From Acidobacteriota bacterium (GTDB lineage: Bacteria; Acidobacteriota; Thermoanaerobaculia; Multivoradales; J023), in the NCBI GenBank assembly GCA_029263315.1, contig JAJCXR010000024.1, positions 124,526 through 188,525 of the forward strand: a DNA stretch of 64,000 nucleotides. Direction: 5' to 3'. The translations under genes were made by a program, and so were the position numbers. Below, in pieces: positions 3,460-47,007 of the stretch (the first letter of the stretch is position 1; each line of letters begins with the position of its first letter). The notes under the pieces are model-generated. The model saw only the letters and a program-made list of their open reading frames with translations. It ran no database searches and was not told the origin of the DNA.

Positions 3460-3545
3460 TGGTGCCGGAGGAGGGAGTCGAACCCACACGCCCTTTCGGA
3501 CAACGGATTTTGAATCCGTCGCGTCTACCATTCCGCCACTCCGGC
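3460..3545 (-). tRNA. tRNA-Leu(CAA), class II with long variable arm, CCA encoded
   Basis: Reverse complement reads GCCGGAGTGGCGGAATGGTAGACGCGACGGATTCAAAATCCGTTGTCCGAAAGGGCGTGTGGGTTCGACTCCCTCCTCCGGCACCA. It has a 7-bp acceptor stem, the anticodon loop TTCAAAA and a T-loop GGTTCGACTCC. Confidence 0.85.
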
Positions 3546-30125: not shown

Positions 30126-30173
30126 CAGCCTGAGCAACGCTCCACGGGGCATCCATGAGCCGCCAGCCTGAGA

Positions 30174-30223
30174 GGGTTTGGCGGCTTTGTTGTTTCTAGG
30201 GTTTGGCGGCTTTGTTGTTTCTA
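30174..30223. repeat. Perfect tandem duplication, 2 x 25 bp (GGGTTTGGCGGCTTTGTTGTTTCTA)
   Basis: Direct reading of the sequence in the parB-methyltransferase intergenic region. Confidence 0.9.
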
Positions 30224-30449
30224 GGATGGGGATAACCCGTTCAAGGGTGTTGCTCTTCATGGTCTGAGGTTAACATAATGTATCTTATCGGACCTTGGAT
30301 ATGGCGTGAATATACGCCGTGAAGTGGCCCCGTGGAACCCGCCATCGAGGCTCAATCCTCCGTGCTAGCATCTCCCTTCGCAGCTTGCTGCCACTCTCGA
30401 GCTCCCACCGGTAGCCGAATCAAGACGGCGGCAACCACTTGCCAAGACG

Positions 30450-31547
30450 ATGTCAACCAAGACGTCAACTAAGACGATGTCAACCACGATGTCTGCTCAG
30501 CCATCTGCCCAAGACCGCCGCATCCTGGCGCTGTTGCTACATCTGCAGCGCTGGCCCTTCGACGCCATCACCGGCGACGACTTACGGCTCGACCACCGAA
30601 CCCTCGAGTCTCAGGCGCGGCAGGTCTTTCCCGAGTTGCCGCAGGATGCGTGGCCCTCCGACTGGCAAGGAGCTCTGCTGACGCTCTGCGAGCAAAACTG
30701 GTTGCACGGCCTGCCCGGTGACCCCGCGGCGACCTTTGGGCTGACTCCCGCCGGACGTGAGCTGGCACGGGGGTTCCACCGTGAGCTCATGGCAAAGGGC
30801 TTCGATGAGTTGCTGGTGGATGCCCTCGACAGCCCCGCCTACGCCTCCTTTTGTCGGCGATCCATGGGACTCGACATCGGGCATTTCAGCCCGGTGGACG
30901 CCATCCAGGTATCTTTGCTGGCCTCCATGCTGAAGGGCCTGGACCGATCGAAGCCGCCGGGCCGGCCGTTCCGTTGGCTGGACTTGGGCTGTGGCGCCGG
31001 AAACATGACGGCCTGGCTGGCCCGCCAACTCGGCACGGCGGTGGCCTATGGCGTCGACCTCGCGTCCGAGGCCATCGCCGTGGGACGTCGTCGGCACGCC
31101 GACCTCGGGCAACGGCTGCATCTTCATGTGGCCGATGTGCACGATCTGCGTGTTTTGCCCGCCGCCTCCTTCGACGCCTTGGTGGCGGTTGACGTGCTGG
31201 CGTTTGTCGATGAACCTGAAATCGCCTTGCGGCGTTGGCTCCGCCTGCTGGCCCCTGGGGGACGAGCCCTGGTCCTGGGTTCGTCGAGGGGCGGCACGCA
31301 GAAAGCGCGATTCGAGGTTGGGTTGCTCGGAAGATACACCCCTCCCCCACTGGTGGTCGATTTGACCTCCCTCGATCGACATCTGTGGCGCTCACAGCGG
31401 CGGATTCTGGCGGTCATGGGCAAGGACTTCGAGGGCGAAGGTCGGCTTCCCCTCTACCGCCTGCTGTGCCAAGAGGCCCGGCGGTGTGGCCGATGGGCCG
31501 AAGCCGGGTCCACTCGGCGCACCTTGACGGTACTGCGGACTGTATAA
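30450..31547 (+). CDS. Class I SAM-dependent methyltransferase with an N-terminal helical domain
   Basis: Motif I LDLGCGAGNMT. The N-terminus MSTKTSTKTMSTTMS is encoded by a short tandem repeat, so the true start may be a downstream ATG. Confidence 0.7.
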   Translation: MSTKTSTKTMSTTMSAQPSAQDRRILALLLHLQRWPFDAITGDDLRLDHRTLESQARQVFPELPQDAWPSDWQGALLTLCEQNWLHGLPGDPAATFGLTPAGRELARGFHRELMAKGFDELLVDALDSPAYASFCRRSMGLDIGHFSPVDAIQVSLLASMLKGLDRSKPPGRPFRWLDLGCGAGNMTAWLARQLGTAVAYGVDLASEAIAVGRRRHADLGQRLHLHVADVHDLRVLPAASFDALVAVDVLAFVDEPEIALRRWLRLLAPGGRALVLGSSRGGTQKARFEVGLLGRYTPPPLVVDLTSLDRHLWRSQRRILAVMGKDFEGEGRLPLYRLLCQEARRCGRWAEAGSTRRTLTVLRTV

Positions 31548-33990: not shown

Positions 33991-34485
33991 TTATTGTCTT
34001 CCGTGGTCCTTGGCAATCGCTCCGCCGAGTCTGCGGTAAGACGCCTCCATACCGTCTTCCATTCCCGAAGCCAGCATGGCTTCACGGGTCTTCTCGTCGG
34101 GGAGTGTCATCCGCATGGTCATCAAGGTGCCGCCGTTTTTGGCCTCGAAGCGGGTTTCGATGTGGTTTTCCGGCGTCGGCCCTGGGAGATGCATGCGCTC
34201 AATATGAACGATCCGCGAGAACGGCTCGAGCTCGATGAATTCACCGGTTATATAGAACCCGCCACCCTTTCCATCCGACCATTCGTAACGAAATTTTCCG
34301 CCGGGAACAGCGTCATTGATGCACACCGGCATGGTCCATTTTTCCGGCCCAAGCATCCACTGCTGAATGAGATCCGGGTCCGTATGTGCACGGAAGACGG
34401 CCTCGGGTGAGGCGGCAAACTGACGGGTGATGACGATGTGCCGGTCACCCTCGATGGTCAGTTTGAGCTGCGTAGAGATGGTCAT
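33991..34485 (-). CDS. SRPBCC-superfamily protein (AHSA1/Aha1-like)
   Basis: 164-aa protein with an Aha1-like signature. Confidence 0.7.
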   Translation of the reverse strand: MTISTQLKLTIEGDRHIVITRQFAASPEAVFRAHTDPDLIQQWMLGPEKWTMPVCINDAVPGGKFRYEWSDGKGGGFYITGEFIELEPFSRIVHIERMHLPGPTPENHIETRFEAKNGGTLMTMRMTLPDEKTREAMLASGMEDGMEASYRRLGGAIAKDHGRQ

Positions 34486-34832
34486 GGTGGTGGTTCCTTA
34501 TGTGGTTCGCTTGGACCGACAGCCAAGAGCTCATCGAGCCGGTCATAGTTGGAAGACATGGCGTTCCGCAGCTCATTCAGCCATTGATCGATCGGAGCGA
34601 GCCCGTCCGCAGCAAGGGCACAGGGGCGGCGCGACCCGTCGACGCGGCGGTGGATCAACCCGGCATTTTCGAGCACCTTGAGATGCTTGGAAATAGCTGG
34701 CTGGCTCATTTCGAACGGTTCTGCGAGCTCCATCACTCCGAGCTCACCCGAGGCCAAGCGCGCTAGAAGGGCGCGTCGTGTCGGATCAGCGAGAGCAGTG
34801 AGAACAACGGTGAGCTGTTCTGCGGTTTTCAT
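34482..34832 (-). CDS. ArsR/SmtB-family metalloregulatory repressor
   Basis: LADPTRRALLARL...MSQPAISKHLKVLENAGLI winged HTH, with Cys in the C-terminal region. Confidence 0.85.
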   Translation of the reverse strand: MKTAEQLTVVLTALADPTRRALLARLASGELGVMELAEPFEMSQPAISKHLKVLENAGLIHRRVDGSRRPCALAADGLAPIDQWLNELRNAMSSNYDRLDELLAVGPSEPHKEPPP

Positions 34833-34840
34833 GCTCTCAA

Positions 34841-34860
34841 TATAACCGAGAGGTTATATT
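34841..34860. promoter_or_regulatory. Candidate ArsR operator: 8-bp inverted repeat with 4-bp spacer (ATATAACC-GAGA-GGTTATAT)
   Basis: Perfect dyad 9 bp upstream of the arsR-like start in an AT-rich spacer. Confidence 0.5.
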
Positions 34861-35140
34861 CTGTCAAAGTTATACATTAGGGCGACAAGACTCCCCTCCC
34901 CCAACCGTTTGGGAAGCGGACTGTGGATCGGTACTCAGCGAGGGCCGCCTTCCCCTCAAGATCGATTCGGCTTGAATTTGAGGAGCTCAAGTGTTCGTAC
35001 TTAGTTTCTTCTACGGCAAGCTCGGCCGAGCCGACTGGCGAGATGTTGATTGACTAGGGAAGACGGCAGGCTGCTTGATTCTGATCCTGGCCTCGATCAT
35101 TCACGCTTCCTCCCTTTCTGCACAAATCTGCTGAGTATGC

Positions 35141-35563
35141 TCAGAGGGCACCTCTTTCCGCAACCCTGAGCGCGTCGAGGATAGGGCACTCGCTGGTCGG
35201 TCCGGCGCCCCCCTGACACGTCTCTGTCAGACGGCCCAAAGCGTCTTCGATGCGGCGTAGCGACGCGATCTTTTCCCTTACGTCGCGGAGCCTATCTTCC
35301 GCTCGTTCCTTGACCTCGCTACAGGTCGCTGCCGGATCGACGCGCAGCGACAGCAGCTCACCGATCTCGTCAAGGGAGAAGCCAAGCTGCTGGGCCCTAT
35401 GGATGAATCGGATCCGTGGGATCGTGCTCGCCGGAAAAGCGCGATAGCCAGAAGCGCGACGTGGCGCCTGCGGGATCAAACCACGGCGCTCGTAGTAGCG
35501 GATGGCCTCCACCCGCATCTCGGTAGCCGCGGCTACCTCGCCTATCGACAAAGCCGTAGTCAT
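35141..35563 (-). CDS. merR: MerR-family Hg(II)-type metalloregulator
   Basis: MerR HTH (IGEVAAATEMRVEAIRYYERRGL). Three Cys at about positions 80, 118 and 127 (ATCSE...ETCQGG...SECP) match the MerR Hg-binding Cys spacing. Confidence 0.75.
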   Translation of the reverse strand: MTTALSIGEVAAATEMRVEAIRYYERRGLIPQAPRRASGYRAFPASTIPRIRFIHRAQQLGFSLDEIGELLSLRVDPAATCSEVKERAEDRLRDVREKIASLRRIEDALGRLTETCQGGAGPTSECPILDALRVAERGAL

Positions 35564-36576
35564 TCATTGCTCCCTTGAGTGTTCGCCCGATGGCCTTGGC
35601 CAGGCGCGAACTTCTGAATGCGATGGTTTCCGAAGTCCACCACGTAGACGTTACCATCGTTATCCACCGCGACATCGGTCGGCCGGTCAAGCTTGCCAAG
35701 TGCCGAACCCTCGGCGCCGATGATCGCCAGGTGCTCGCCCTCGGTCGTCAGTTTCCGGACTTGGTGGCTGTAGAAGTCAGCGACGAAGATGGCGCCGTCT
35801 GGACCTACGGCGACCGCCGTCGCGGTGCGGAACTTGCCTCGATCGCCATCGGTACCTGAGGAGGTCGAGCCATTCCACAAGCGTAGGAAGCTCCCCCCCT
35901 TGTGGAAAATCTGGACGCGATCATTGTAGGCGTCGGCAACAACCAAGCTCCCATCGCTGAGCAGGGCCACATCGGTGGGGTACTGAAACCGTCCCGGCTC
36001 GGATCCCGTTCGGCCGGTTTCTCCCAGCTGGCGGATCAACTCTCCTGCCGAGGTCATGACCTGGATCCGCTGGTTGTAGAAGTCCGCCACGTAGAGCTTC
36101 CCTTCGGCGTCGACATCGACCCCTGCCGGCGCGTCGAACTGGCCGGGTCCGGATCCAGGCATGCCCAGGATCTCTTGAGAGATCCCCGCCGGCGAGAAGA
36201 CCTGGATGCGGTCGTTTAGGTATTCCGCGACGTACAACCTGCCATCGCGGAATGCGAGATGCATCGGCCGCGCAAGTTCCCCTGCTGCGCTTCCTTCTTT
36301 GCCGAAGGCACGAACGAATCGGCCTGCGAGGTCGAATACCTGAATGCGGTGATTGCCCGCGTCGCTGACGTAGACCTCACCCTGCGCCACGGCGATCCCG
36401 ATCGGTTGGCGCAGGTCTCCAGGTCGAAACCCCTCCTGGCCCCAGGTCGAGACAAATCGGTAGCCGCCGTTCGGCAGCGGCAGCTCCCCCGCTCCTACCT
36501 CGCTGACGCCGGTGCTCGACACGCTAGCTGCGAGGCTGAGAGCGAACAGGTAGGTGGTACAGCGGCGCCACATCAC
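35560..36576 (-). CDS. Secreted NHL-repeat beta-propeller protein
   Basis: Signal peptide followed by six NHL-like repeats (YV.D..N.RIQVF). Confidence 0.8.
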   Translation of the reverse strand: MMWRRCTTYLFALSLAASVSSTGVSEVGAGELPLPNGGYRFVSTWGQEGFRPGDLRQPIGIAVAQGEVYVSDAGNHRIQVFDLAGRFVRAFGKEGSAAGELARPMHLAFRDGRLYVAEYLNDRIQVFSPAGISQEILGMPGSGPGQFDAPAGVDVDAEGKLYVADFYNQRIQVMTSAGELIRQLGETGRTGSEPGRFQYPTDVALLSDGSLVVADAYNDRVQIFHKGGSFLRLWNGSTSSGTDGDRGKFRTATAVAVGPDGAIFVADFYSHQVRKLTTEGEHLAIIGAEGSALGKLDRPTDVAVDNDGNVYVVDFGNHRIQKFAPGQGHRANTQGSNE

Positions 36577-37502
36577 CAGTTCACCCGCATGCTCAAGATG
36601 GCGGTGCCATCGGGTTCTAGGGCAGCGCCATGGAGCGCTCTTACAATTGGAATCTGCACTCCGGCTTCGACGATCAACCTCTTGCTGACGAGCTGAATGC
36701 CCGGTGCCAAGTAGGCGATGAAGCCGCCCGAGTCTGGATCAGCCAGGCCGCCGGCACGATTTCGGCCGGCCCACACCAGATTGCTCTCCAGGACGCCGTA
36801 GAGGAACCGGGGCAGCCCGGCCTTCAGGCGACGCGGCAGGAGCCGGTGTTGGTACGAGATGTCGAGCCGCGCCTCGTCGCCAAGCTCGAAAGCGTTGGCT
36901 TGGTCGTTGACTCGGTAGGCAATGGAGGTATCGAGCTGCCAGCCCAGAGTTTGCCAGGTGGCGACCGAACCGAAGGCGAGATCCCAGGAACCCGAGCCGA
37001 GCTGAAGCGGCGGTGGAAGCCCGCCCAGGCCATCGCGCCGGTCGTCCTCGCCGGTGGGCGCCTCGACGCCGAGGAACGGTGCCAGGCGAAAGGTTCGTCC
37101 CGGCCGGTCGCGACGAAACAGCGTATAGCGGCCCAACAAGGTGACGTCGCCCAGGCCAGAGACCTGTCGTCGCTTGCGACCGTTCGACGTCGTGAGAGCA
37201 AGCTGCTTGTCGAGGATCGGAAGAATGGCAAAGAGGGCCAGCTTGTCGGTGACACCGTAGACCCCAACCAGGGACAGAGCTTCGACCTCCAACTTTCGCT
37301 GCGCTGAAGTCGGGTCACCGGTCGACCGGAGGTACCTCGTCTGGATACGAACGATCCCTTCTCCTTCGGCGACCGGCAGGGCCGTGTTGAAGGTAATCGG
37401 TGCAGCAGCAACGTGCACGACCGCAAGACTTACACCGAAGCCCCAGACAGCGAAGACCGCCATTGGCAGAATTGCATTTCTCTGGCCAATTCGTTGCCTC
37501 AC
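36573..37502 (-). CDS. Outer-membrane beta-barrel of the 'transporter'/MetA-like family
   Basis: 309 aa with a signal peptide, alternating beta-strand pattern and a C-terminal aromatic residue (…RVNW). Confidence 0.55.
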   Translation of the reverse strand: MRQRIGQRNAILPMAVFAVWGFGVSLAVVHVAAAPITFNTALPVAEGEGIVRIQTRYLRSTGDPTSAQRKLEVEALSLVGVYGVTDKLALFAILPILDKQLALTTSNGRKRRQVSGLGDVTLLGRYTLFRRDRPGRTFRLAPFLGVEAPTGEDDRRDGLGGLPPPLQLGSGSWDLAFGSVATWQTLGWQLDTSIAYRVNDQANAFELGDEARLDISYQHRLLPRRLKAGLPRFLYGVLESNLVWAGRNRAGGLADPDSGGFIAYLAPGIQLVSKRLIVEAGVQIPIVRALHGAALEPDGTAILSMRVNW

Positions 37503-38053
37503 CTTCGCACCTCTTCAATGTGCTCGGGAGACAGCGCCGGACCAGCGTCTGACCATCGAATCTCTCCACGCAGGGTCACCGGTATGTCGCCTCGAAGAAA
37601 CTCGAGCAGACGCAGGGCGATCTCATCAGCAACATCGACCAACAACAGGCTTCCTTCGTCGTTCTCGAAGCGTAGCTGAAGGTCGCCTTCCTTTGGCCCG
37701 GCAACGACTCGGCCAGTGACCTCGATGTCCAAACTACCGGGGGTGAAGCCGGCCTTCTCGACAGCTCGTCGGACCTCTTGGACATCGATGGACTGGCCCT
37801 GTTCAGCGATGACTCGCGCTTGACCTGCCACGAGGTCGATTGTCACCTTCTCGACCGCGTCTACCTTCAAGAGGCGCTTTTCGATACCGTATCCGCAGAA
37901 CGGGCAGGCCATGCCGTCGACTGCAACCGTGGCCTTGATGACCTGGGCAGGGAGCGGACTGGCGAGCAACAGAATTAGTAGCAACGGTTTCCAAACAAGC
38001 CGCATGGCATCGCTCTCCTTCTGCGATTGGGAGCTTGGGCCCTTCAGCTTCAC
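37499..38053 (-). CDS. Secreted heavy-metal-associated (HMA) domain protein with C-terminal extension
   Basis: Signal peptide, then GMACPFCGYGIEKRL (MxCxxC metal-binding motif). 4-bp ATGA overlaps with both neighbours. Confidence 0.75.
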   Translation of the reverse strand: MKLKGPSSQSQKESDAMRLVWKPLLLILLLASPLPAQVIKATVAVDGMACPFCGYGIEKRLLKVDAVEKVTIDLVAGQARVIAEQGQSIDVQEVRRAVEKAGFTPGSLDIEVTGRVVAGPKEGDLQLRFENDEGSLLLVDVADEIALRLLEFLRGDIPVTLRGEIRWSDAGPALSPEHIEEVRR

Positions 38054-38322
38054 GCCTCCCCCTCCACGGATTGGCCGAGACCGACCTCGCGCAGCCGAGC
38101 GAGGTCCACACCGCCGCGGCAGCAGTCGGCGAGAACGCCGTCTATAACTACCGAGGGGGCTCTCGCTACGCCCTGAGCTCGAGCACGTTCCGCTACAGAG
38201 GCATCCCGAAGATCGGACACACTCACGTCACAGGAGGTGCACGCTAATTCACCTACCGCAGTGACGACCTCGTCGCACAATGGGCAACCTGCGCTGAAAA
38301 TCTCTATCGTTAGCTGACTCAT
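38050..38322 (-). CDS. Small thioredoxin-fold redox-active disulfide protein (CPxC), ars-operon type
   Basis: MSQLTIEIFSAGCPLCDEVV, about 90 aa, with AAAGGAG 8 nt upstream of the ATG. Confidence 0.65.
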   Translation of the reverse strand: MSQLTIEIFSAGCPLCDEVVTAVGELACTSCDVSVSDLRDASVAERARAQGVARAPSVVIDGVLADCCRGGVDLARLREVGLGQSVEGEA

Positions 38323-38411
38323 GGGTCGACTCCTTTCTTCCAAGTTGCAACAGAGGCACATCTTGGCATTCTTGTCGGAGAAGAAATGTGTACTGAGGCG
38401 GAACACGATCG

Positions 38412-38872
38412 TTACGCCAGCCAGGAGAGCCGCGGCGCGATGCCTCTCCCGGCATGCAGGAAGAACTTACAGCCTGAAGTCAACTTCAGAGTCAAGGGGT
38501 CCCCCAGAGAATGTTGTGTAGAGGGTCGCAAGCAGATTTGTATTGATTTGGGAGTACCAGGCTCAACCTCCCGATCAAGCCATAGCTGCGCCCGATCGAG
38601 CCTTAGTTGGCCTCCGACAGTCCTCCGACTCGTATCCGCAAAACAGCGGCGCAATGCTCGGCTCACGTAGACTAGGCTGATCAACACCGGTACATCGACC
38701 AGGGGTCCGACCGCTTTCGCAAAGGCGATCGGCGAGGCGATTCCAAAGATGCCGATGGCTATAGCGATCGCCAGCTTGAAGTTATTGCCAGAAGCGGCTC
38801 AACCCGCCGCTCAGCCCAAGGCGATGCCGGTCAGACTCCAAATCAGGAGCTTGCTGCGCAGCGACCCCGCGA
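38412..38872 (-). pseudogene. Remnant of an ACR3-family arsenite efflux pump; only the C-terminal 50-60 codons survive, interrupted by two in-frame TGA codons
   Basis: Minus-strand frame reads ...[55 protein letters not shown]..., matching the conserved ACR3 C-terminus (NF.LAIAVAI..FG..S..A.A.V.GPL.EVPV.L.LV). No upstream ACR3 body exists. Confidence 0.4.
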
Positions 38873-38995
38873 GATCTGACATGGGGTTTTCACAAGTCTT
38901 AGACCTCGATCTCATGACTCCAACAGAGAATCCTCACCGCTCCTATGGACCAGGAAGGGCCAGAATTCACGGTATTCGGAGCCTCGCACGACGAG

Positions 38996-40375
38996 TCACC
39001 GGGCTGCACGAGCTGCGCCCTTCACCATTTCGCTCAGCGTCGGATGGGCGTGAATCGACTTGCTGATTCGGTCGATTCTGCCGTTTCCGTGCATCGCAGC
39101 AACAGCCTCGTGCAGGAGATCATCACCGTGAGGTGCGAGAATGTGGAAGCCGAGGATTTGCCGGGATTCTCGATCTACAACCGCTTTGAGCAGTCCGCGT
39201 GGATCACCGATCGTTTTGGCTCGCGCGCCGTCCGCACGGACCGTGCCAACCGCCACGTCATGACCGCTCTCTCGAGCCTCGGCCTCGGTGAGACCGACTG
39301 CCGCCAGCGTCGGGTCGCTAAAGATCGCCCTCGGCACGACCCGGTAGTCGACTTCTTTCCCCAGGCCTTTGACGGCGTTCAAGGCAGCGAGGGGTCCGTC
39401 ATAGGTCGCCACGTGGGTGAACATCCAACCGCCCTTGACATCGCCGATGGCCCAGACATGCGGCTGGCTCGTCCGAAGCTGGCCGTCGACCGGAATAAAG
39501 CCCCTCGCGTCTATGTCGATACCGGCGGACCGTAGGTGGAGGCCGCCGGTGTTCCCGACCCGCCCGGCCGCAACCAGGACTTCTGCGGCACGGTACTCCT
39601 TCTCTGAGCCGTCAGTGCTACAGACGGCTATCTTCTGTCCGTTCTCGTCGCGTATCGACTGCACGGCGGCCCCGGTTCTGACGTTGATGCCCTCCTCTCG
39701 GAGGTAGTCCGCAAGGAGCTCGGAGAGCTGAGGATCCTCTCCGGGCGCCAAGCGGTCATTGCGGCCGAGGAGAGTGACCCTCGAGCCGAAGCGGGAATAC
39801 ATCTGAGCAAACTCGATTCCAACGTAGCCGCCTCCGATCACCAGGAGGCTCGACGGCACACGCCCTAAATGCAGAGCTGTATCGTTGTTCAAAGAGTCAA
39901 TAGCTTCCAGGCCCGAGATCGGAGGCACGACCCGGCGTGCCCCTGTGGCGATGATCGCCTTGGTGAAGCTGATTCGGCGATCGCCAGTGTCGATTTCGTG
40001 GGGACTGACGAATCTGGCCTCTCCTCGGACGAAATCGATCGCATCCCGTCGTTTGCTCAACGCGCCATGGATCGTCTTATGAATGCCGCTAACAATGGCG
40101 TCCTTGCGCGCCACGGCCTGATCCAGCCGAAAGCGCACGGCGCCATCGATCTCAACTCCGAGGTCGGTCGCCCGCCGGGCAACCAGGTGCATCACTTCGG
40201 CCGAGCGCAGCAAGGCCTTGGTAGGGACGCACCCCTCGTTGACTCAGGTGCCGCCGACCTCCGCGCGCTCGACGAGCGCAACCCGGGCTCCGAGGTTGGC
40301 CGCCATATGGGCGGCCGGCAGACCTCCCTGTCCAGCTCCGATCACCGCCAAGTCATAGTCATGTGATGGCATCAT
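38996..40375 (-). CDS. LpdA/GR/MerA-like flavoprotein disulfide reductase with an in-frame TGA replacing the first redox-active Cys
   Basis: From ATG 40375, preceded by GAGGGAG: MMPSHDYDLAVIGAGQGGLPAAHMAANLGARVALVERAEVGGT-TGA-VNEGCVPTKALLRSAEVMHL..., then about 415 aa of intact frame through the NAD(P) GxGxxG and the C-terminal HAHPTLSE dimerisation motif. The TGA is codon 44 at 40244-40246, where the canonical [13 protein letters not shown] has Cys. This is either a selenocysteine codon or a nonsense mutation. Confidence 0.6.
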
Positions 40376-40397
40376 GGTTCTCCCTCTACTTTGGTTT

Positions 40398-40427
40398 GTG
40401 TCAAGTTGTGTCAAGTTGTGTCAAGTC
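40398..40427. repeat. Three tandem copies of GTGTCAAGTY in the 5' region of the TGA-containing reductase gene
   Basis: gtgtcaagtt gtgtcaagtt gtgtcaagtc, 20-50 bp upstream of the ATG at 40375. Confidence 0.8.
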
Positions 40428-40461
40428 TCGCTCGAGAGCCGAGGTCCTGGGTGACGCCCGG

Positions 40462-40563
40462 CTATTCTTTCGAATCGCCGTGACGGTCACCTTCCAGCAC
40501 AGTGCCGGCCGAAAGGGCAGCAACAACCAGCAGGATCGAAGCATGAGTGAGCTTGGGATTCAT
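40462..40563 (-). CDS. Possible 33-aa secreted peptide between merA and the TGA-reductase gene
   Basis: MNPKLTHASILLVVAALSAGTVLEGDRHGDSKE, with a strong SD (AAGGAGAAGGGTCC-ATG). It is below the ORF-track length cut-off. Confidence 0.35.
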   Translation of the reverse strand: MNPKLTHASILLVVAALSAGTVLEGDRHGDSKE

Positions 40564-40617
40564 GGACCCTTCTCCTTCGGAGTGATGAGCGTGCCGACGA
40601 CGCTTCGTCGGCTAGGG

Positions 40618-42380
<1,763 letters not shown>

Positions 42381-42409
42381 CATCTCGTGTTCTCCTTGTC
42401 TCAGGTGGC

Positions 42410-42751
42410 CTACAACAGCCACGATGCGTAGTACGGAAACGCCATCAAGGCGACCGCGACGGTCGCTACGATCCACAGCACAATGCGGTGCCGCCGCCGG
42501 CTCTTGGGGACCGCGCAGGCTTCCCCCGGCTCGCACTCCACCGGCCTGTAGGCCTGATAGAAGGCGAAGCCTAGGAAGATGAGGGTCAGCCCTGCGAACC
42601 AGGGGCGAAGGGGCTCGAGCTTCGCTCCCAGGGCCGCCGACCCGACCCCGAGGACCGCCACAGCGACTGGCAGGATGCAGCACAGCGAAGCACCAAAAGC
42701 AGCGATCACGGCTCCGGCGTTGACAAACACGTTCTTCTTGGTTTCTTCCAT
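42410..42751 (-). CDS. merT: Mercuric ion transport protein MerT
   Basis: Three TM helices. TM1 has the Cys-Cys pair (GASLCCILPV). The cytoplasmic loop has the second Cys pair ECEPGEACAVP. The C-terminus VLWIVATVAVALMAFPYY is MerT-like. Confidence 0.75.
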   Translation of the reverse strand: MEETKKNVFVNAGAVIAAFGASLCCILPVAVAVLGVGSAALGAKLEPLRPWFAGLTLIFLGFAFYQAYRPVECEPGEACAVPKSRRRHRIVLWIVATVAVALMAFPYYASWLL

Positions 42752-42769
42752 CGGGTGCTCCCGTTCAAT

Positions 42770-43090
42770 TCAGCTCTGCTTGAGCAAGGTAGCGAGGACT
42801 TTGGTGACCTTCTTGAGCCGCTCGTCCGGGTCGCCTTCCATGCAGGTATTCATGCAGGAGTGCAGCTCGTGCTCCAGCAGCACAGCGGAGAAGCGATTGA
42901 GTGCCGCCTTGACCGCGGATACCTGCAGCAGGATTTCGTCGGCGCACCGCTCCTCCTCGAGCATCTGGCCGACGCTCCGAAGGTGCCCTTCGAGCCGTGC
43001 AAGCCTGTTGCGCAAAGCGCGTTTCGCAGCCTCGTCTAGGTATCCGAGACCGGCTGGATGGGAGGTCGAAAGATCGTTCTTCGAAATCAT
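42770..43090 (-). CDS. CsoR/RcnR/FrmR-family (DUF156) metal-sensing transcriptional repressor
   Basis: 106 aa with ARLEGHLRSVGQMLEEERCADEILLQVSAVKAALN and the C-H-C ligand pattern (C..H..C). AAGGAGAA SD. Sits 18 bp upstream of merT. Confidence 0.8.
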   Translation of the reverse strand: MISKNDLSTSHPAGLGYLDEAAKRALRNRLARLEGHLRSVGQMLEEERCADEILLQVSAVKAALNRFSAVLLEHELHSCMNTCMEGDPDERLKKVTKVLATLLKQS

Positions 43091-43118
43091 GAAAAGGTTC
43101 TCCTTCTTTGGACTGGTT

Positions 43119-43137
43119 TATCCCCCCCGGGGGGATA
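43119..43137. promoter_or_regulatory. Candidate CsoR-type operator: G/C-tract palindrome TATCCCCCCC-GGGGGGATA
   Basis: Near-perfect dyad 29 bp upstream of the csoR-like start codon. CsoR-family operators are typically C-tract/G-tract inverted repeats. Confidence 0.45.
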
Positions 43138-43379
43138 CCTCAATCTAACACTACGCAGCAGCCTCGAGCTCGGTTCATTCCTACTTGCCGAGTGGGGAAA
43201 ACTGCGTCTTGGTGCTGATCGATCGATCGAGCTTGGAGGGAACCGACTGAGGGGGGGCCAGGGCAACCGGTGTCACCTCGTCTACCTGAGTCAGGGATCT
43301 TGACGAGACCGGAGTTTCCGGGTTGCTGTTCTTCTCAATCTCGAGACGGGGAATCGCCCACGAGCCGTCCGGGCGCCGA

Positions 43380-44774
43380 CTAGCGCTCCGCCGTCAACAG
43401 CAACGGCGCCAGCTCCGCCAAGTCCTCAACGACGACGGTGGCCAACCCCTCGGGAACGACCCGCAGGTCCCCGGGTGGTAGGAAGACCTGGCGGAACCCC
43501 AAGGCGGCGATTTCCCGCAGCCGGGCCTCGGTCTGCGACACCGGTCGGACCTCCCCCAGCAGGCCGACTTCGCCGAAGAAGACGGCCTCGTGGGGCAGGG
43601 GTCGCTCCCGCTCGGCGCTGAGCATGGCGGCGGCGATGGCCAGATCGGCGGCGGGTTCTTTGAGCTGGAGGCCACCGACCACGTTGAGGAAAAGGTCCCG
43701 GTCGCCGAGTCCCAGACCGCCGAAACGCTCGAGCACGGCGGCCAGCAGGATGCTGCGATGGCGGTCGACGCCGACGCTCATGCGGCGGGGGGATGGGAAG
43801 CTGGTGGGATGAATGAGCGCTTGCACTTCCACCAGCAGGGGGCGGGTGCCGTGCAGGCTGGCACACACCGCCGAGCCGGGACGATGTCCGCGGCGCCGGG
43901 CCAGCAGCACCCGGGACGGATCTTTGACCGCCACCAGGCCGTTGTCATGCATCTCGAACATGGCCACCTCGCCGGTGGGCCCGAAGCGGTTCTTCTGGGC
44001 CCGCAGAACCCGGTACTCGGAATGGCTCTCACCCTCGAAGGTGAGGACCGTATCGACCAGATGCTCCAAAGATTTTGGCCCGGCGATGGCGCCGTCTTTG
44101 GTCACGTGGCCGACCAGGAAGAGAGCCATGTCATAGCCCTTGGCCAGCTCGACCAGGCGATCGGCACAGGCCCGCACTTGACCGATCGAACCAGGCGGGC
44201 CACTGAGCTCTTGGCTGCGCAGGGCTTGCACCGAGTCGACCAGCACCATGTGGGGACGACGTTCGCTGATCACCTGTAGCAGCGGTTCGAGTCGGGTTTC
44301 TCCAGCAACGTGCAGCGTCTCGGCTTCACACCCCAGGCGGCTGGCCCGCAGGTGCAGCTGCCTGGGGCTCTCCTCGGCGCTGAGATAGAGCACTGAGGCG
44401 CCGCTGCTGGCCAGGTCGTTGCCCATTTGCAGCAGTAGGGTGGACTTGCCGATGCCCGGCTCGCCGGACAGCAAGACGGCACCGCCGGGCACGATGCCGC
44501 CACCCAGAACGCGGTCGATCCATGGTGAGCCGGTCGACAGTCGGCTCCCTTCGTCGGCCACGATGTCCCGTAAGGGCTGGACGATGGTGGCCGGGCCTTG
44601 GCCCTTGAGGCGGGAGGAGGAGGCCGTAGGCGCCAAACCGCCGCCGCGGCTACCCCGCTCCTCCACTTCCTCGCTGAACGAGTCCCAGGCGCCGCAGTCC
44701 GGGCAGCGACCCAGCCACTTTGGGCTGCGGTAGCTACAGCTCTGGCAGATGTGGATCGATCGCGGTGCGGCCAT
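43380..44774 (-). CDS. radA: DNA repair protein RadA/Sms
   Basis: N-terminal zinc finger CQSCSYRSPKWLGRCPDCGAW, RecA-like Walker A GEPGIGKST, and a Lon-like C-terminal domain. Confidence 0.9.
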   Translation of the reverse strand: MAAPRSIHICQSCSYRSPKWLGRCPDCGAWDSFSEEVEERGSRGGGLAPTASSSRLKGQGPATIVQPLRDIVADEGSRLSTGSPWIDRVLGGGIVPGGAVLLSGEPGIGKSTLLLQMGNDLASSGASVLYLSAEESPRQLHLRASRLGCEAETLHVAGETRLEPLLQVISERRPHMVLVDSVQALRSQELSGPPGSIGQVRACADRLVELAKGYDMALFLVGHVTKDGAIAGPKSLEHLVDTVLTFEGESHSEYRVLRAQKNRFGPTGEVAMFEMHDNGLVAVKDPSRVLLARRRGHRPGSAVCASLHGTRPLLVEVQALIHPTSFPSPRRMSVGVDRHRSILLAAVLERFGGLGLGDRDLFLNVVGGLQLKEPAADLAIAAAMLSAERERPLPHEAVFFGEVGLLGEVRPVSQTEARLREIAALGFRQVFLPPGDLRVVPEGLATVVVEDLAELAPLLLTAER

Positions 44775-44798: not shown

Positions 44799-46205
44799 TT
44801 AGAAGCCGGCTTGCTCGGTGTGCACTTTTTCCATATTGCGGAAGGTCGTATTCTCGCCCATGAAGACCAGATCGACGGTGCCGGTTTCGCCGTTACGATG
44901 CTTGGAAATGATGAGCTCCGCCAATCCTTTGTTGTCGGGGTCATCCTTGTTGTAGAGCTCGTCGCGGTAGATGAAGCACACCATATCGGCGTCCTGCTCG
45001 ATGGAGCCACTCTCACGCAGATCCGCCAGTTGGGGACGATGGTCGTTGGCCCGACGCTCGGTTTGGCGCGACAGCTGCGACAGGGCGACCACCGGAATCA
45101 TCAGCTCCTTGGCCAGCTGTTTGAGACCACGGCTGATGGCGGCGATTTCCAGTTGCCGGTTTTCGTAGCGCCCCCCCGCCTGCATGAGCTGGAGGTAATC
45201 CACCAACAAGAGGTCGAGACCCTTTTCGGCCTTCAGACGCCGCGACTTGGAGGCGATCTCCAAAAGCGACGGATTGGGTGAGTCATCGATGAAGATCTGC
45301 GCCTCGTTGGTGCGCCGGGTGGTTTCGTAGATGCGCCCCCACTGCCCTTCGGACATCTTGCCGGAGCGCAGGTTGCCGAAGGGAATGTCGGCCTCCGAGG
45401 CGAGAATACGTTGCACCAGCTCCTGCTCGCCCATTTCGAGGGAGAACAGGGCCACCGACTTCTCTTCCCGGATGGCGACGTTCTGGGCGACATTGAGGGC
45501 AAAACTGGTTTTACCCATGCCCGGACGACCGGCGATGATGATCAAGGCCCCGGCGCCCAGGCCTTGGGTCATGCGGTCCCAATCATAGAAACCGGTGGGG
45601 ATGCCCACCAAGCCGCCGCCGGCCCGTTGCTCGAGGCTGGCGATGGTGGCTTCGTAGACCTCCGCCAGGGCAGAAAATCCCTTCTGCACCGCCTCTTCCG
45701 ACAGGCCGAAGATGCTCTTCTCCGCTTCCGCCAGGGCCTCCGTGGCATCGAGGCCCCCCTCGAGGCAGCCGAAGACCAGCTCTTGGCATTTCTGCACCAG
45801 ACGGCGACGGACGGAACGTTCCTTGACGATCTCGACATAGGTATCGACCCGCCCGATGTCCGGCAAGTCGAGATCCAGGCCGGCCAGGAAAGCCATGCCA
45901 CCGATGAGCTCGAAGGAACCCTTGAGCTGCATGTGCGCCTGCAGGGTCCGCAGGTCGATCTCCGATTCCCGTTCCTGAAGCTCGAGCATCGCCCGGAAGA
46001 TCAGCTGATGCTTTTCGAGAAAGAAGTCCTCGTCCGTCATCCGCCCGGTGATGGTTGGCAGAATCCGTGGCGACAAGAGAATCGACGCCAAGACGGCGCG
46101 CTCCGCCTCCTCGCTATTGGGCAAGGTCTTGCCGGCGGCCGACTCGAAAGTGGGTGTCGGCGCCTTGCGGCGGGAGCGTTCGAAATTCATCGTCTTAGGA
46201 GGCAT
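44799..46205 (-). CDS. dnaB: Replicative DNA helicase DnaB
   Basis: DnaB N-terminal domain, Walker A GRPGMGKTSF and the RecA-like fold. The start is ambiguous (46205 or 46190) because it lies inside a tandem repeat. Confidence 0.9.
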   Translation of the reverse strand: MPPKTMNFERSRRKAPTPTFESAAGKTLPNSEEAERAVLASILLSPRILPTITGRMTDEDFFLEKHQLIFRAMLELQERESEIDLRTLQAHMQLKGSFELIGGMAFLAGLDLDLPDIGRVDTYVEIVKERSVRRRLVQKCQELVFGCLEGGLDATEALAEAEKSIFGLSEEAVQKGFSALAEVYEATIASLEQRAGGGLVGIPTGFYDWDRMTQGLGAGALIIIAGRPGMGKTSFALNVAQNVAIREEKSVALFSLEMGEQELVQRILASEADIPFGNLRSGKMSEGQWGRIYETTRRTNEAQIFIDDSPNPSLLEIASKSRRLKAEKGLDLLLVDYLQLMQAGGRYENRQLEIAAISRGLKQLAKELMIPVVALSQLSRQTERRANDHRPQLADLRESGSIEQDADMVCFIYRDELYNKDDPDNKGLAELIISKHRNGETGTVDLVFMGENTTFRNMEKVHTEQAGF

Positions 46206-46250
46206 TCATCCGTCTTGGGAGGCATTCATCCGTCTTGGGAGGCATTCAGA
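46188..46250. repeat. Three tandem copies of a 20-bp unit (CCGTCTTRGGAGGCATTCAT) spanning the lipoprotein stop and the dnaB start
   Basis: On the coding (minus) sense each unit reads TGAATGCCTCC(C/T)AAGACGGA. Each copy carries a TGA and an ATG. Confidence 0.85.
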
Positions 46251-47007
46251 CATCATCGGCGGTACAGAAACTCTCGCTGAAACGGCGTGGGATTTCCAGG
46301 GGCTCCAAAGGCGCCGTCAGGGTTTCGCGAACCACTTCCTTCCACCGCAGTTGTTGCTGCGAGCTGCGGTGGGCGTAGGTGCCGCCTTGGTCGTCCTCAC
46401 GGCGCCACCAGGCAATGGATTCGTCCCCTTCCAATTGGCTCCACCACTGTAGCTCGTCGGACCGAAAACTGCCATTCCAACGTTGGCCCTCGGCGTCGAG
46501 GAACGTCAGATGCGTGTCGAATATTTCTAGATTCGCCTTCGGCTCGGTGGGCATACGACCCAATAACAATCGCGGCAAGGCCACCAAGGGGAGCCGGGCG
46601 ATGGGCAGAAATCCCAGCCGGTCGGCGGGCCCGAGATGGCAGAACTCCCGGTTGCGGTGATCGAGCCAGGTGGCGTTGCCGGTGGCGTCGAGGTCGAGGG
46701 ACCACAGCTTGCGGCCGAGGCCGTCGGCGGCGAGCATGCGGTATTGGCGCTCCCCCACCAAGTACAGGGTGAGCTTGAAGCCGGCCCGTTCGTCGTCGGG
46801 ACCTTGGTAGCGAATTCGATAGAGGCGCTGGGTGGGATACGCCTCGGGGGGAATTTGCCACATCTCCGCCGACCCTGGGCTGCTCGGCGGGTTGCCGAGA
46901 AGCTCGCCCAGGGAGCCTGAGGCACAACCGAGACTGAGGGTGCACAGGATCACCAGACCGAGCAACTCGCAAGCGCAACGCCCCTTGGGTCTGACGCCTG
47001 GCGTCAC
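46246..47007 (-). CDS. Hypothetical lipoprotein
   Basis: Lipobox LSLGCASG. No assignable family. Confidence 0.5.
   Translation of the reverse strand: MTPGVRPKGRCACELLGLVILCTLSLGCASGSLGELLGNPPSSPGSAEMWQIPPEAYPTQRLYRIRYQGPDDERAGFKLTLYLVGERQYRMLAADGLGRKLWSLDLDATGNATWLDHRNREFCHLGPADRLGFLPIARLPLVALPRLLLGRMPTEPKANLEIFDTHLTFLDAEGQRWNGSFRSDELQWWSQLEGDESIAWWRREDDQGGTYAHRSSQQQLRWKEVVRETLTAPLEPLEIPRRFSESFCTADDV

Follow-up and report, generated by a model that had tools for sequence, protein, structure and literature searches.

Organization of the locus

The window analyzed here is a 64,000-nucleotide stretch of DNA (positions 124,526 to 188,525 of contig JAJCXR010000024.1) from GCA_029263315.1, an 8.0-Mb biofilm metagenome assembly (67 contigs, 92% complete) representing an uncultured member of the Thermoanaerobaculia (Acidobacteriota). 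Positions 35141-43137 on the minus strand carry a row of genes that we interpret, with a probability of roughly two in three, as a chromosomal mercury-resistance island built of three units, each with its own control region. In the order of transcription, unit 1 contains a gene for a CsoR-family regulator followed by merT, merP, and merA; unit 2 consists of a flavoprotein disulfide reductase gene with an in-frame TGA codon, read here as selenocysteine (Sec); and unit 3 contains genes for a thioredoxin-like protein, a secreted protein with a heavy-metal-associated (HMA) domain, an outer-membrane beta-barrel, an NHL beta-propeller, and a MerR-family regulator. Open reading frame (ORF) and family searches recovered, all on the minus strand, every gene that a first-pass annotation had listed for this stretch. 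That annotation had flagged the TGA-containing reductase without interpreting it; the reductase is the most unusual part of the island.

The whole row had been proposed to form a single transcription unit, with 4-bp ATGA overlaps at several gene junctions. Such overlaps do occur at merP/merA and NHL/merR, but at these two junctions only: the HMA/barrel and barrel/NHL junctions overlap as GTGA or TGATG, and the thioredoxin-like and HMA genes are probably separated by a gap of 44 nt. A single unit for the row is unlikely, since it is interrupted by two long gaps and a dead transporter remnant, and since a separate MerR-type promoter (38464-38495) precedes the block running from the thioredoxin-like gene to merR. 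The first gap, between merA and the Sec reductase gene, spans 242 nt and contains a 33-residue ORF and three tandem CTTGACACAA units. The second, of about 670 nt between the Sec reductase gene and the thioredoxin-like gene, contains the C-terminal stub (44 residues; 38664-38795, minus strand) of an ACR3 arsenite transporter, which matches TIGR00832 with 50.6 bits across model positions 283-326 of 327 only. In-frame stops lie upstream of the stub and the 10 transmembrane (TM) segments of a full-length transporter are not present; the stub is evidently a dead remnant. A scan of the island for sigma-70 and terminator consensus sequences returned nothing above shuffled controls except an arsR promoter at 34839-34867; the MerR-type and CsoR-type promoters described below were detected by a custom dyad search.

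Identical island DNA was found in contigs from two further samples, giving three samples in total, all from a single biofilm metagenome study. One of these additional contigs covers 38764-40570 and thus the TGA, and shows zero differences. Among the sequencing runs searched, the island was held by DNA contigs of this study only, and no RNA run was listed. The island is flanked by housekeeping genes, with radA and dnaB on one side and an arsR-SRPBCC pair, lptFG, and parAB on the other. No flanking repeats of a mobile element were found around it.

A selenocysteine codon in the redox site of the reductase

The unit 2 gene (38996-40375, minus strand) encodes a flavoprotein disulfide reductase of 459 aa, in which the TGA at 40244-40246 specifies a predicted Sec44 within the sequence GGT-U-VNEGC. 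The TGA occupies the codon of the first (outer, interchange) Cys of the CxxxxC redox site GGTCVNxGC, the second Cys being Cys49. The C-terminus carries the His-Glu dyad HAHPTLSE and lacks a C-terminal Cys pair.

Relatives of the reductase were collected by a scan of one genome per species. At the redox codon, TGA was found in 33 of 33 loci (31 assemblies, 49-73% identity) and never TAA, TAG, or a Cys codon; these loci span at least five phyla (Gemmatimonadota, Chloroflexota, Acidobacteriota, Myxococcota, and Neomarinimicrobiota). At 40% identity or below, every relative has Cys at the Sec position. In a maximum-likelihood tree, the Sec forms constitute one clade (SH-like approximate likelihood ratio test, SH-aLRT, 95), sister to the Cys-type PRK06370.1-4 group (96), and canonical MerA is separate (98). 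Within this tree the window copy nests among Gemmatimonadota copies, which suggests horizontal transfer of the gene. The closest relative of the host that carries a Sec reductase is a Thermoanaerobaculia metagenome-assembled genome.

The host genome encodes the machinery for Sec insertion: selA (502 bits) adjoins a tRNA-Sec gene (70.5 bits) on contig C53, and selB (347 bits) is present, as is a selD that itself contains an in-frame TGA. A selA gene above cut-off was found in all 10 of the other carriers tested; among 14 control genomes, it was found only in Escherichia coli. These data indicate that the TGA reductase is a conserved Sec-encoding gene and not a pseudogene. An alternative genetic code was rejected because TGA terminates merP, the barrel gene, and others, and because selA is present in every carrier examined.

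Besides the reductase, host selenoproteins include SelD (TCG-U-AAK) and the formate dehydrogenase alpha subunit (CAAT-U-HAPT), at G000:C21:7123-8046 and G000:C45:97623-98363 (locus, genome, and contig identifiers beginning with L, G, and C are our own). A tRNA-like sequence also lies in the window at 3464-3545 (G000:C24:127989-128070, minus strand). It scores 38 bits against the tRNA-Sec model, below the gathering score; a tRNA with a long arm, for example one for Ser or Leu, is the probable assignment.

Of 245 public protein clusters, the best 120 are all N-terminally truncated at the TGA (396-415 aa), and the clusters that are named appear as 'NAD(P)/FAD-dependent oxidoreductase' or 'dihydrolipoamide dehydrogenase'. 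No selenoprotein-specific model occurred among the best 25 NCBIfam matches of the reductase, and no MerA- or lipoamide-dehydrogenase-class enzyme is listed in the prokaryotic selenoprotein family table of a May 2026 review (PMC13188914). A literature search for a Sec-containing MerA returned nothing relevant, though absence from the papers searched is no proof of novelty. The Sec reductase was thus not found at full length in the literature searched, in NCBIfam, or in the best 120 of the 245 protein clusters.

Candidate RNA signals around the TGA and candidate sites upstream of the reductase

A candidate selenocysteine insertion sequence (SECIS) region follows the TGA at 40166-40234 (minus strand) and comprises helix 1 (40185-40234) and helix 3 (40166-40184). 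Helix 1 begins 9 nt past the UGA and is 98.8% paired. Helix 3 has the form GGUUGCCC-GGC-GGGCGACC and shows covariation at synonymous third positions; one example pair is CG in 8 orthologues, UA in 7, UG in 6, GC in 3, AU in 2, and GU in 1. The values observed for helices 1 and 3 were reached by 0 of 500 shuffles, and slid controls also fell short of them. Synonymous codon entropy, calculated over 30 orthologues, is lower at codons 41-55 than anywhere else in the gene (0.53, as compared with a mean of 0.74) and stays low through codon 70.

The apex of helix 3 (GCCC-GGC-GGGC) resembles the SECIS hairpins of the host's own selD and fdhA genes, which follow the UGA after 11 nt (GAGCCC-GGUC-GGGCUC) and 12 nt (GGUCGCC-GGUCU-GGUGACC), respectively. 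Helix 3 would come to lie at an effective distance (9 + 8 nt) similar to that in selD and fdhA only if the 50-nt helix 1 remains folded. An Rfam E-value scan of 34000-44000 returned chance-level matches only. A genome-wide scan for an in-frame TGA followed by a CCCGG..GGG hairpin gave 1189 matches in this GC-rich genome, mostly out-of-frame noise, and was dropped.

Upstream of the reductase, the three tandem copies of CTTGACACAA occupy 40396-40425 (minus strand), each with a TTGACA hexamer, and end 20 nt before the ATG. This tandem array occurs once in the 8-Mb genome and is possibly a promoter or a regulator site. No inverted-repeat operator was found upstream of the reductase. Between the array and merA lies the putative 33-residue hydrophobic ORF (40462-40563, minus strand), which has a Shine-Dalgarno-like GAAGGAG and no family match.

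Association of the Sec reductase with mer operons

Most of the longer carrier contigs have merR-merT-merP ahead of the Sec reductase gene, merB alongside it, or both. Observed gene orders include merR-merT-merP-reductase-merB (L035), merR-merT-merP-merB-reductase (L056), and merR-merT-merP-reductase (L045); in the Thermoanaerobaculia relative, the order is merR-merT-merP, a CopZ N-terminal-type gene, arsR, merC, merB, the reductase gene, and a second merB. A MerA above the TIGR02053 cut-off is missing in 9 of 10 carrier genomes, including the 99%-complete relative. The Sec reductase therefore fills the merA slot of merR-merT-merP(-merB) operons in other phyla.

We infer that the Sec reductase is a flavoprotein of the MerA/lipoamide-dehydrogenase class acting as an NAD(P)H-dependent Hg(II) reductase. 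In such an enzyme, direct transfer of Hg(II) to the selenolate, either from thiol ligands or from MerB, would substitute for the ligand exchange performed by the C-terminal cysteines of MerA. The use of Sec for thiol, disulfide, or soft-metal chemistry within the flavoprotein superfamily recalls mammalian thioredoxin reductase, which is a high-affinity target of Hg. However, thioredoxin reductase holds its Sec in a C-terminal GCUG tail and has an all-Cys N-terminal site (CVNVGC), whereas the window enzyme has Sec at the first Cys of the N-terminal site and no C-terminal redox tail. The nearest Cys-containing relatives are PRK06370-type 'FAD-containing oxidoreductase' proteins and RclA-like MerA homologs; these are of equal length, share the His-Glu dyad, and lack a C-terminal Cys pair, but are all-Cys, 35-40% identical to the Sec reductase, and located outside mer operons in the loci fetched.

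Directly upstream of the Sec reductase there is often a gene for a Cys-rich CopZ_Nterm_CC-family protein (NF047645; 106 bits at L034:12594-13055), as at L038, L039, L043, L047, L049, L055, L062, and L070, sometimes with an ArsR-family gene between the two. This gene ('putative iron-sulfur cluster-binding metallochaperone') is missing from the window. Additionally, two Chloroflexota contigs carry a second, Cys-type homolog near the Sec reductase (L044:3746-5056 and L043:18328-19635; 40% and 32% identity), which in L044 lies directly downstream of it.

A CsoR-family regulator heads merTPA

The first gene of unit 1 (42770-43090, minus strand) encodes a CsoR-family repressor (PF02583, 71 bits against a cut-off of 22.8). 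Its putative operator, the C/G-tract palindrome TATCCCCCCGGGGGGGATA, lies at 43119-43137 (minus strand), exactly where the first-pass annotation had placed it, between a TTGAGG -35-like and a TAAACC -10-like hexamer and about 25 nt upstream of the csoR-like ATG. The protein thus matches the family hidden Markov model (HMM), and its promoter carries a palindromic operator with GC tracts, both as expected of the CsoR/RcnR family. Aligned to CsoR and InrS structures, the protein has Cys49, Glu75 at the position of the Cu-ligand His, Cys79, and an additional Cys83, and so departs from the Cys-His-Cys ligand set of Cu(I) sensors.

Ten relatives at 48-70% identity were identified among 400 other Acidobacteriota genomes, and 9 of these adjoin merT, merP, merA, or a CopZ N-terminal-like gene; the tenth (L095) lies on a short locus that shows no neighbor. 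The departure from the Cu(I) ligand set is common to this mer-linked clade, which shares the pattern RCADEIL ... C-x3-C-M, whereas more distant canonical CsoR proteins have H-x3-C without the second Cys. Two csoR-mer operons (L090 and L091) contain ATCCCCCC-N-GGGGGGAT within the spacer between TTGACA and the -10 element, matching the window operator; the canonical CsoR locus L104 has ATACCC-N4-GGGTAT instead. The proposal that a CsoR-type regulator and its C/G-tract operator head merTPA is therefore borne out, and the arrangement recurs.

As compared with CsoR (the Cu(I) sensor), CstR, RcnR, InrS, and FrmR, the window protein keeps the PF02583 fold and the first and last ligand Cys, and its operator is likewise a GC-tract palindrome with AT ends that overlaps the promoter. 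It differs in the Glu that replaces the ligand His, in a third Cys four residues past the second (C...C-x3-C), in an operator of the form ATCCCCCC-N-GGGGGGAT rather than ATACCC-N4-GGGTAT, and in a genomic partner that is mer rather than copZA. These features suggest a thiolate-based Hg(II) sensor. A CsoR-family tetramer would bind the ATCCCCCC-N-GGGGGGAT operator in the promoter spacer, and binding of Hg(II) to the thiolates of Cys49, Cys79, and Cys83 would release it, derepressing merTPA. A literature search for an Hg-sensing CsoR found nothing relevant, which, for the papers searched, is no proof of novelty. One orthologue (L095:1498-1767, genome G049) has an in-frame TGA two residues before the Cys79 position (...SEI*SCVNTCM...) and is either a Sec-containing regulator or a broken gene.

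The remaining genes of unit 1 are orthodox. The merT gene (42410-42751, minus strand; PF02411, 94 bits; NF010314, 79 bits) encodes a predicted inner-membrane Hg(II) importer with a CC pair in TM1. The merP-like gene (42027-42383, minus strand; PF00403, 66 bits) encodes a periplasmic HMA protein with a signal peptide and a GMTCGGC motif, which scores below the TIGR02052 cut-off. The merA gene (40618-42030, minus strand) encodes the core enzyme without an N-terminal HMA domain and scores 755 bits against NF010311 (cut-off 600), 554 against TIGR02053 (cut-off 454), and 596 against the Tn501 core (1zk7), to which it is about 70% identical. Published MerA signatures comprise, in RC607 numbering, C207/C212, Y264, and Y605 (Tn501 C136/C141, Y194, and Y535), together with a C-terminal vicinal Cys pair (PMC8261052). 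In the window enzyme, Cys46 and Cys51 align to 1zk7 chain positions 42 and 47 as the redox pair; the Tyr residues of RTKYESIL and FPYLTM align to positions 100 and 441; and the C-terminal SCCAG supplies the equivalents of C558/C559. With all four signatures and scores above the model cut-offs, merA is canonical, and the earlier assignment of the stretch to mercury resistance holds. MerP and MerT would import Hg(II), and MerA would reduce it to Hg(0).

A MerR-type promoter and the accessory genes

A putative MerR-type promoter/operator lies at 38464-38495 (minus strand), with TTGACT and TAAGTT hexamers separated by a 20-nt spacer that holds the dyad CTGAAGT-TG-ACTTCAG, in line with the dyad operator within a promoter spacer of 19-20 nt that is expected for MerR control. 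Comparable promoters occur 5' of merR and of barrel modules in L035, L041, L045, L051, L130, L131, L135, L136, and L137. Barrel modules have a related dyad, which reads CTGTAC-N4-GTACAG in both L136 and L137 and takes variant forms in L130, L131, and L135. The merR operator of L045 is TCCGTAC-CATG-GTACGGA, almost identical to the Tn21 operator. The block from the thioredoxin-like gene to merR thus appears to have its own MerR-controlled promoter, and merR is therefore probably the last gene of its own unit and not the tail of merTPA. Unit 3 would be autoregulated by merR through this promoter.

The MerR-family metal sensor itself (35141-35563, minus strand; PF09278 and PF13411) has Cys81, Cys116, and Cys126, corresponding to C82, C117, and C126 of Tn501, with the last spacing one residue longer than in Tn501. 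Most MerR homologs of at least 45% identity that head merTP operons keep the three Cys. A Hg-type MerR had previously been placed at the operon tail: its three Cys are confirmed, but it scores below the TIGR02051 cut-off and probably ends a MerR-promoted unit of its own rather than the merTPA operon.

The other products of unit 3 are a cytoplasmic, Thioredoxin_3-like CPLC protein (38050-38322, minus strand; PF13192, 25.4 bits), with orthologues in G038, L045, L130, and L137; a secreted HMA protein (37499-38005, extending to 38053 if translation begins at a GTG, minus strand; PF00403, 43 bits) that combines a GMACPFCG motif with an uncharacterized C-terminal domain of about 80 aa; an outer-membrane beta-barrel (36573-37502, minus strand; PF13557, 47 bits) that belongs to the Phenol_MetA_deg family and has a signal peptide; and a secreted six-bladed NHL beta-propeller (35560-36576, minus strand; PF01436, 166 bits over 5 repeats) that lacks Cys beyond its signal peptide.

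The island shares with the Tn21/Tn501 mer operon the orthodox merT, merP, and merA, a three-Cys MerR-family sensor, and a long-spacer promoter of the TTGACT-dyad-TAAGTT type. It differs in that merTPA is headed by a CsoR-family repressor rather than by a divergent merR, in that merR ends a separate accessory operon, and in the addition of the Sec reductase and of outer-membrane and periplasmic accessory genes.

Pairing of the outer-membrane barrel with the HMA protein

Barrel homologs were found in 19 Acidobacteriota genomes besides the host (400 searched). Among 18 fetched loci, the neighbors include a secreted HMA gene in 14, an NHL gene in 10, a MerR-family gene in 9, and a thioredoxin-like gene in 2. 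Classical mer genes lie nearby in L131 (merB-merA-merP-merP-merT), and also in L135, L132, L137, and G038. On a broader scale, with each genus represented by a single genome, a barrel homolog occurs in 945 of 36145 genera in 54 phyla. For carriers in three likeness bands (40-59%, 20-39%, and under 20%), an HMA gene lay within 3 kb of the barrel in 66/75, 51/75, and 45/147, respectively, and merT lay within 10 kb in 24/75, 9/75, and 9/147; each count at random places was below 3.

A complex model of the mature barrel and the mature HMA protein gave an interaction prediction score from aligned errors (ipSAE) of 0.80, as compared with 0.00 for the best control; this mark is attained by 58 of 80 solved complexes and by 2 of 110 mismatched pairs. 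Contact agreement between runs was at least 97%, and the predicted local distance difference test (pLDDT) score of the partner was at least 85. The modeled interface involves HMA residues 46-60, including the GMACPFCG metal loop, and turns at the barrel end that bears both termini. By the usual topology of outer-membrane barrels, this end is periplasmic. The model supports binding of the secreted HMA protein by the barrel, such that the HMA CxxC loop would dock on the periplasmic mouth. The two proteins may therefore form an outer-membrane/periplasm soft-metal relay, which would here pass Hg(II) across the outer membrane and periplasm to MerP and MerT. An envelope role in metal handling, suggested earlier for the barrel and propeller, thereby gains comparative support, from the neighbor counts, as well as support from the barrel-HMA model.

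Six acidobacterial barrel modules encode a secreted HMA partner with two in-frame TGA codons at the CxxC positions (L133:6259-6504, L134:7669-7983, L138:8743-9054, L142:7583-7954, L143:9667-9999, and L147:6686-6982). Their consensus is G-M/I/L-T-U-x-L-U-A, for example GMT-U-GL-U-AYG, and they look like secreted UxxU diselenol metal-binding proteins paired with an outer-membrane barrel. In L138 (8009-8683; genome G108), a barrel homolog also has one in-frame TGA. The UxxU metal-binding (seleno)protein NF041115, termed a 'putative mercuric reductase' in reviews, has its HMA fold in common with the secreted HMA protein of the window; the latter differs in being a Cys form that is secreted, has an extra C-terminal domain, and is paired with a barrel.

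A plasmid collection contained three weak barrel matches, annotated as 'transporter' or 'hypothetical protein'; the two that were opened both adjoin genes for a 'heavy-metal-associated domain-containing protein'. RefSeq names barrel-HMA pairs only as 'transporter' and 'heavy-metal-associated domain-containing protein'. A literature search for a mer-linked Phenol_MetA_deg barrel returned nothing relevant, and the absence of such a barrel from the papers searched is no proof of novelty.

Alternative interpretations

Several observations weigh against the interpretation given above. The reductase shows none of the four MerA signatures, and the His-Glu dyad argues for disulfide chemistry and not for Hg(II) chemistry. 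Its redox site has Sec first and Cys49 second in place of the Cys pair; His stands at both positions corresponding to MerA Y194 and Y535 (KTIHGAL and HAHPTLSE); all 30 full-length Sec reductases end in ...AARAA(K/R) without Cys; and the TIGR02053 score of 413 bits falls below the MerA cut-off of 454. The very strong Hg-Se bond could slow turnover, and, given the canonical merA in the window, a second Hg(II) reductase would be redundant here. At the RNA level, helix 3, which is the most SECIS-like hairpin, is about 60 nt past the UGA, farther than usual; a subgroup at 50% identity lacks helix 3 and has a different hairpin instead; and a single-sequence fold of the 81 nt past the TGA is no better than shuffles (z = -0.12), a measure that is uninformative in DNA of 62% GC. 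The MerR protein scores 129 bits against TIGR02051 (cut-off 151), close to its scores for ZntR (125) and CueR (123), so that its sequence does not single out one metal. The barrel-HMA pair may serve soft metals generally, since most such pairs in other phyla are not beside merT, and the complex model was built from our own small alignments. Additionally, the host genome is known only as a metagenome assembly.

The alternative that survives best, though we consider it unlikely, accepts the reductase as a true selenoprotein but regards it as a disulfide or selenenylsulfide reductase rather than a mercuric reductase. During mercury stress, such an enzyme could maintain a thiol or selenol partner in the reduced state; candidate partners are the thioredoxin-like protein, MerB, the Cys-rich protein resembling the CopZ N-terminus, and a low-molecular-weight thiol. 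In a variant of this idea, the enzyme could reduce a selenium compound whose product traps Hg. The His-Glu dyad is that of lipoamide dehydrogenase and glutathione reductase and is found as H(A/V/I)HPTLSE in 28 of the 30 Sec reductases, the other two having PPTLSE and HPTLNE. The score against TIGR01350, the model for the lipoamide dehydrogenase/glutathione reductase class, is borderline (414 bits, cut-off 409) and as high as that against TIGR02053 (413 bits). The His residues in place of the two MerA Tyr, the missing C-terminal Cys pair, a sister clade that is the uncharacterized PRK06370.1-4 group and not MerA, the frequent location after a CopZ_Nterm_CC gene, and the canonical MerA already in the window are also in keeping with disulfide chemistry. 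However, most carriers have no MerA above cut-off despite the merR, merT, merP, and often merB genes around the reductase; if the reductase were not mercuric, Hg(II) taken up through these operons would meet no enzyme able to reduce it. The presence of Sec in the entire clade also suggests a demanding soft-metal or ligand-exchange step. Of the two readings, a Sec-dependent Hg(II) reductase is the most likely.

Less probable still is a function in the handling of copper, silver, or some other soft metal instead of mercury, whether for the island as a whole or, at a minimum, for units 1 and 3. A CsoR regulator, HMA proteins, and a CopB-like outer-membrane route would fit such a function: the CsoR family is best known for Cu(I) sensing, the HMA proteins score about equally as CopZ-like and MerP-like, and the MerR protein is nearly equal on the CueR, ZntR, and MerR models. 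In addition, merT is not near most barrel-HMA pairs, and one plasmid example lies beside a P-type ATPase. Yet unit 1 contains bona fide merT and merA, and the mer-linked CsoR clade, with 9 of 10 relatives beside mer genes, no longer has the Cu-ligand His and has acquired a third Cys. Three-Cys MerR relatives head merTP operons, some with operators nearly identical to that of Tn21. The barrel modules of L131, L135, L137, and G038 adjoin merA, merB, merC, or merT, and the incidence of merT within 10 kb of the closest barrel carriers (24/75) exceeds that at random places (<3).

The reading of the TGA as a genuine stop, which would leave a pseudogene or a 405-aa enzyme starting downstream as annotated by gene callers, is close to refuted: the best 120 of the 245 protein clusters all show the truncated form, a TTG start opens the 405-aa frame, the single-sequence fold 3' of the TGA is unremarkable, and an Rfam match is absent, but the shortened protein would have neither the FAD-binding GxGxxG fold nor any of the redox motif, and the 43 upstream codons are conserved in frame across the 33 loci with the stop always TGA and aligned with the catalytic Cys. 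Moreover, selA is present in 11 of 11 carriers examined, the host has tRNA-Sec, selB, and a selD of the Sec type in addition to selA, and the TGA is directly followed by covarying helices and by a stretch under synonymous constraint.

Implications

Taken further, the comparative data prompt a tentative proposal, to which we give somewhat less than even odds. A Sec-dependent mercuric reductase, defined by U-x4-C and a His-Glu dyad, would exist and act without the C-terminal cysteines or the tyrosines of MerA; it would be the sole mercuric reductase of mer operons in Gemmatimonadota, Chloroflexota, Acidobacteriota, Myxococcota, and Neomarinimicrobiota, and would be accompanied by a CsoR-family Hg(II) sensor and a barrel-HMA (or UxxU) relay feeding MerP and MerT.

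Censuses of MerA would miss the Sec reductase because gene callers truncate it. If the enzyme reduces Hg(II), merA surveys that rely on the Cys and Tyr signatures overlook a clade widespread in soil, sediment, and marine phyla. As far as searched, it would be the first flavoprotein disulfide reductase found with selenium in the N-terminal redox site; it would offer a natural test of the role of a selenolate in Hg ligand exchange and would directly connect, at the molecular level, the biology of selenium in bacteria with that of mercury. For the well-studied CsoR family, the mer-linked clade would extend the range of metals sensed by one, through a simple His-to-Glu switch and an extra Cys. The barrel-HMA pair, present in hundreds of genera, would give mer systems a first dedicated outer-membrane component and would make a route for Hg(II) across the outer membrane testable.

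Features flanking the island

The arsR-family and SRPBCC genes 3' of the island (34482-34832) have a near-consensus sigma-70 promoter at 34839-34867 (TTGACA, 17 nt, TATATT), which overlaps the palindrome TATAACC-TCTC-GGTTATA. Together with the ACR3 stub, this promoter and palindrome hint that the mer units inserted into, or rearranged, an older ars locus. On the other side, three tandem 20-nt units (CGTCTTRGGAGGCATTCATC) at 46191-46262 lie directly 5' of the dnaB start (46205). Tandem duplications of 25 nt and 27 nt were also observed at 30173-30222 and 30444-30497, respectively.

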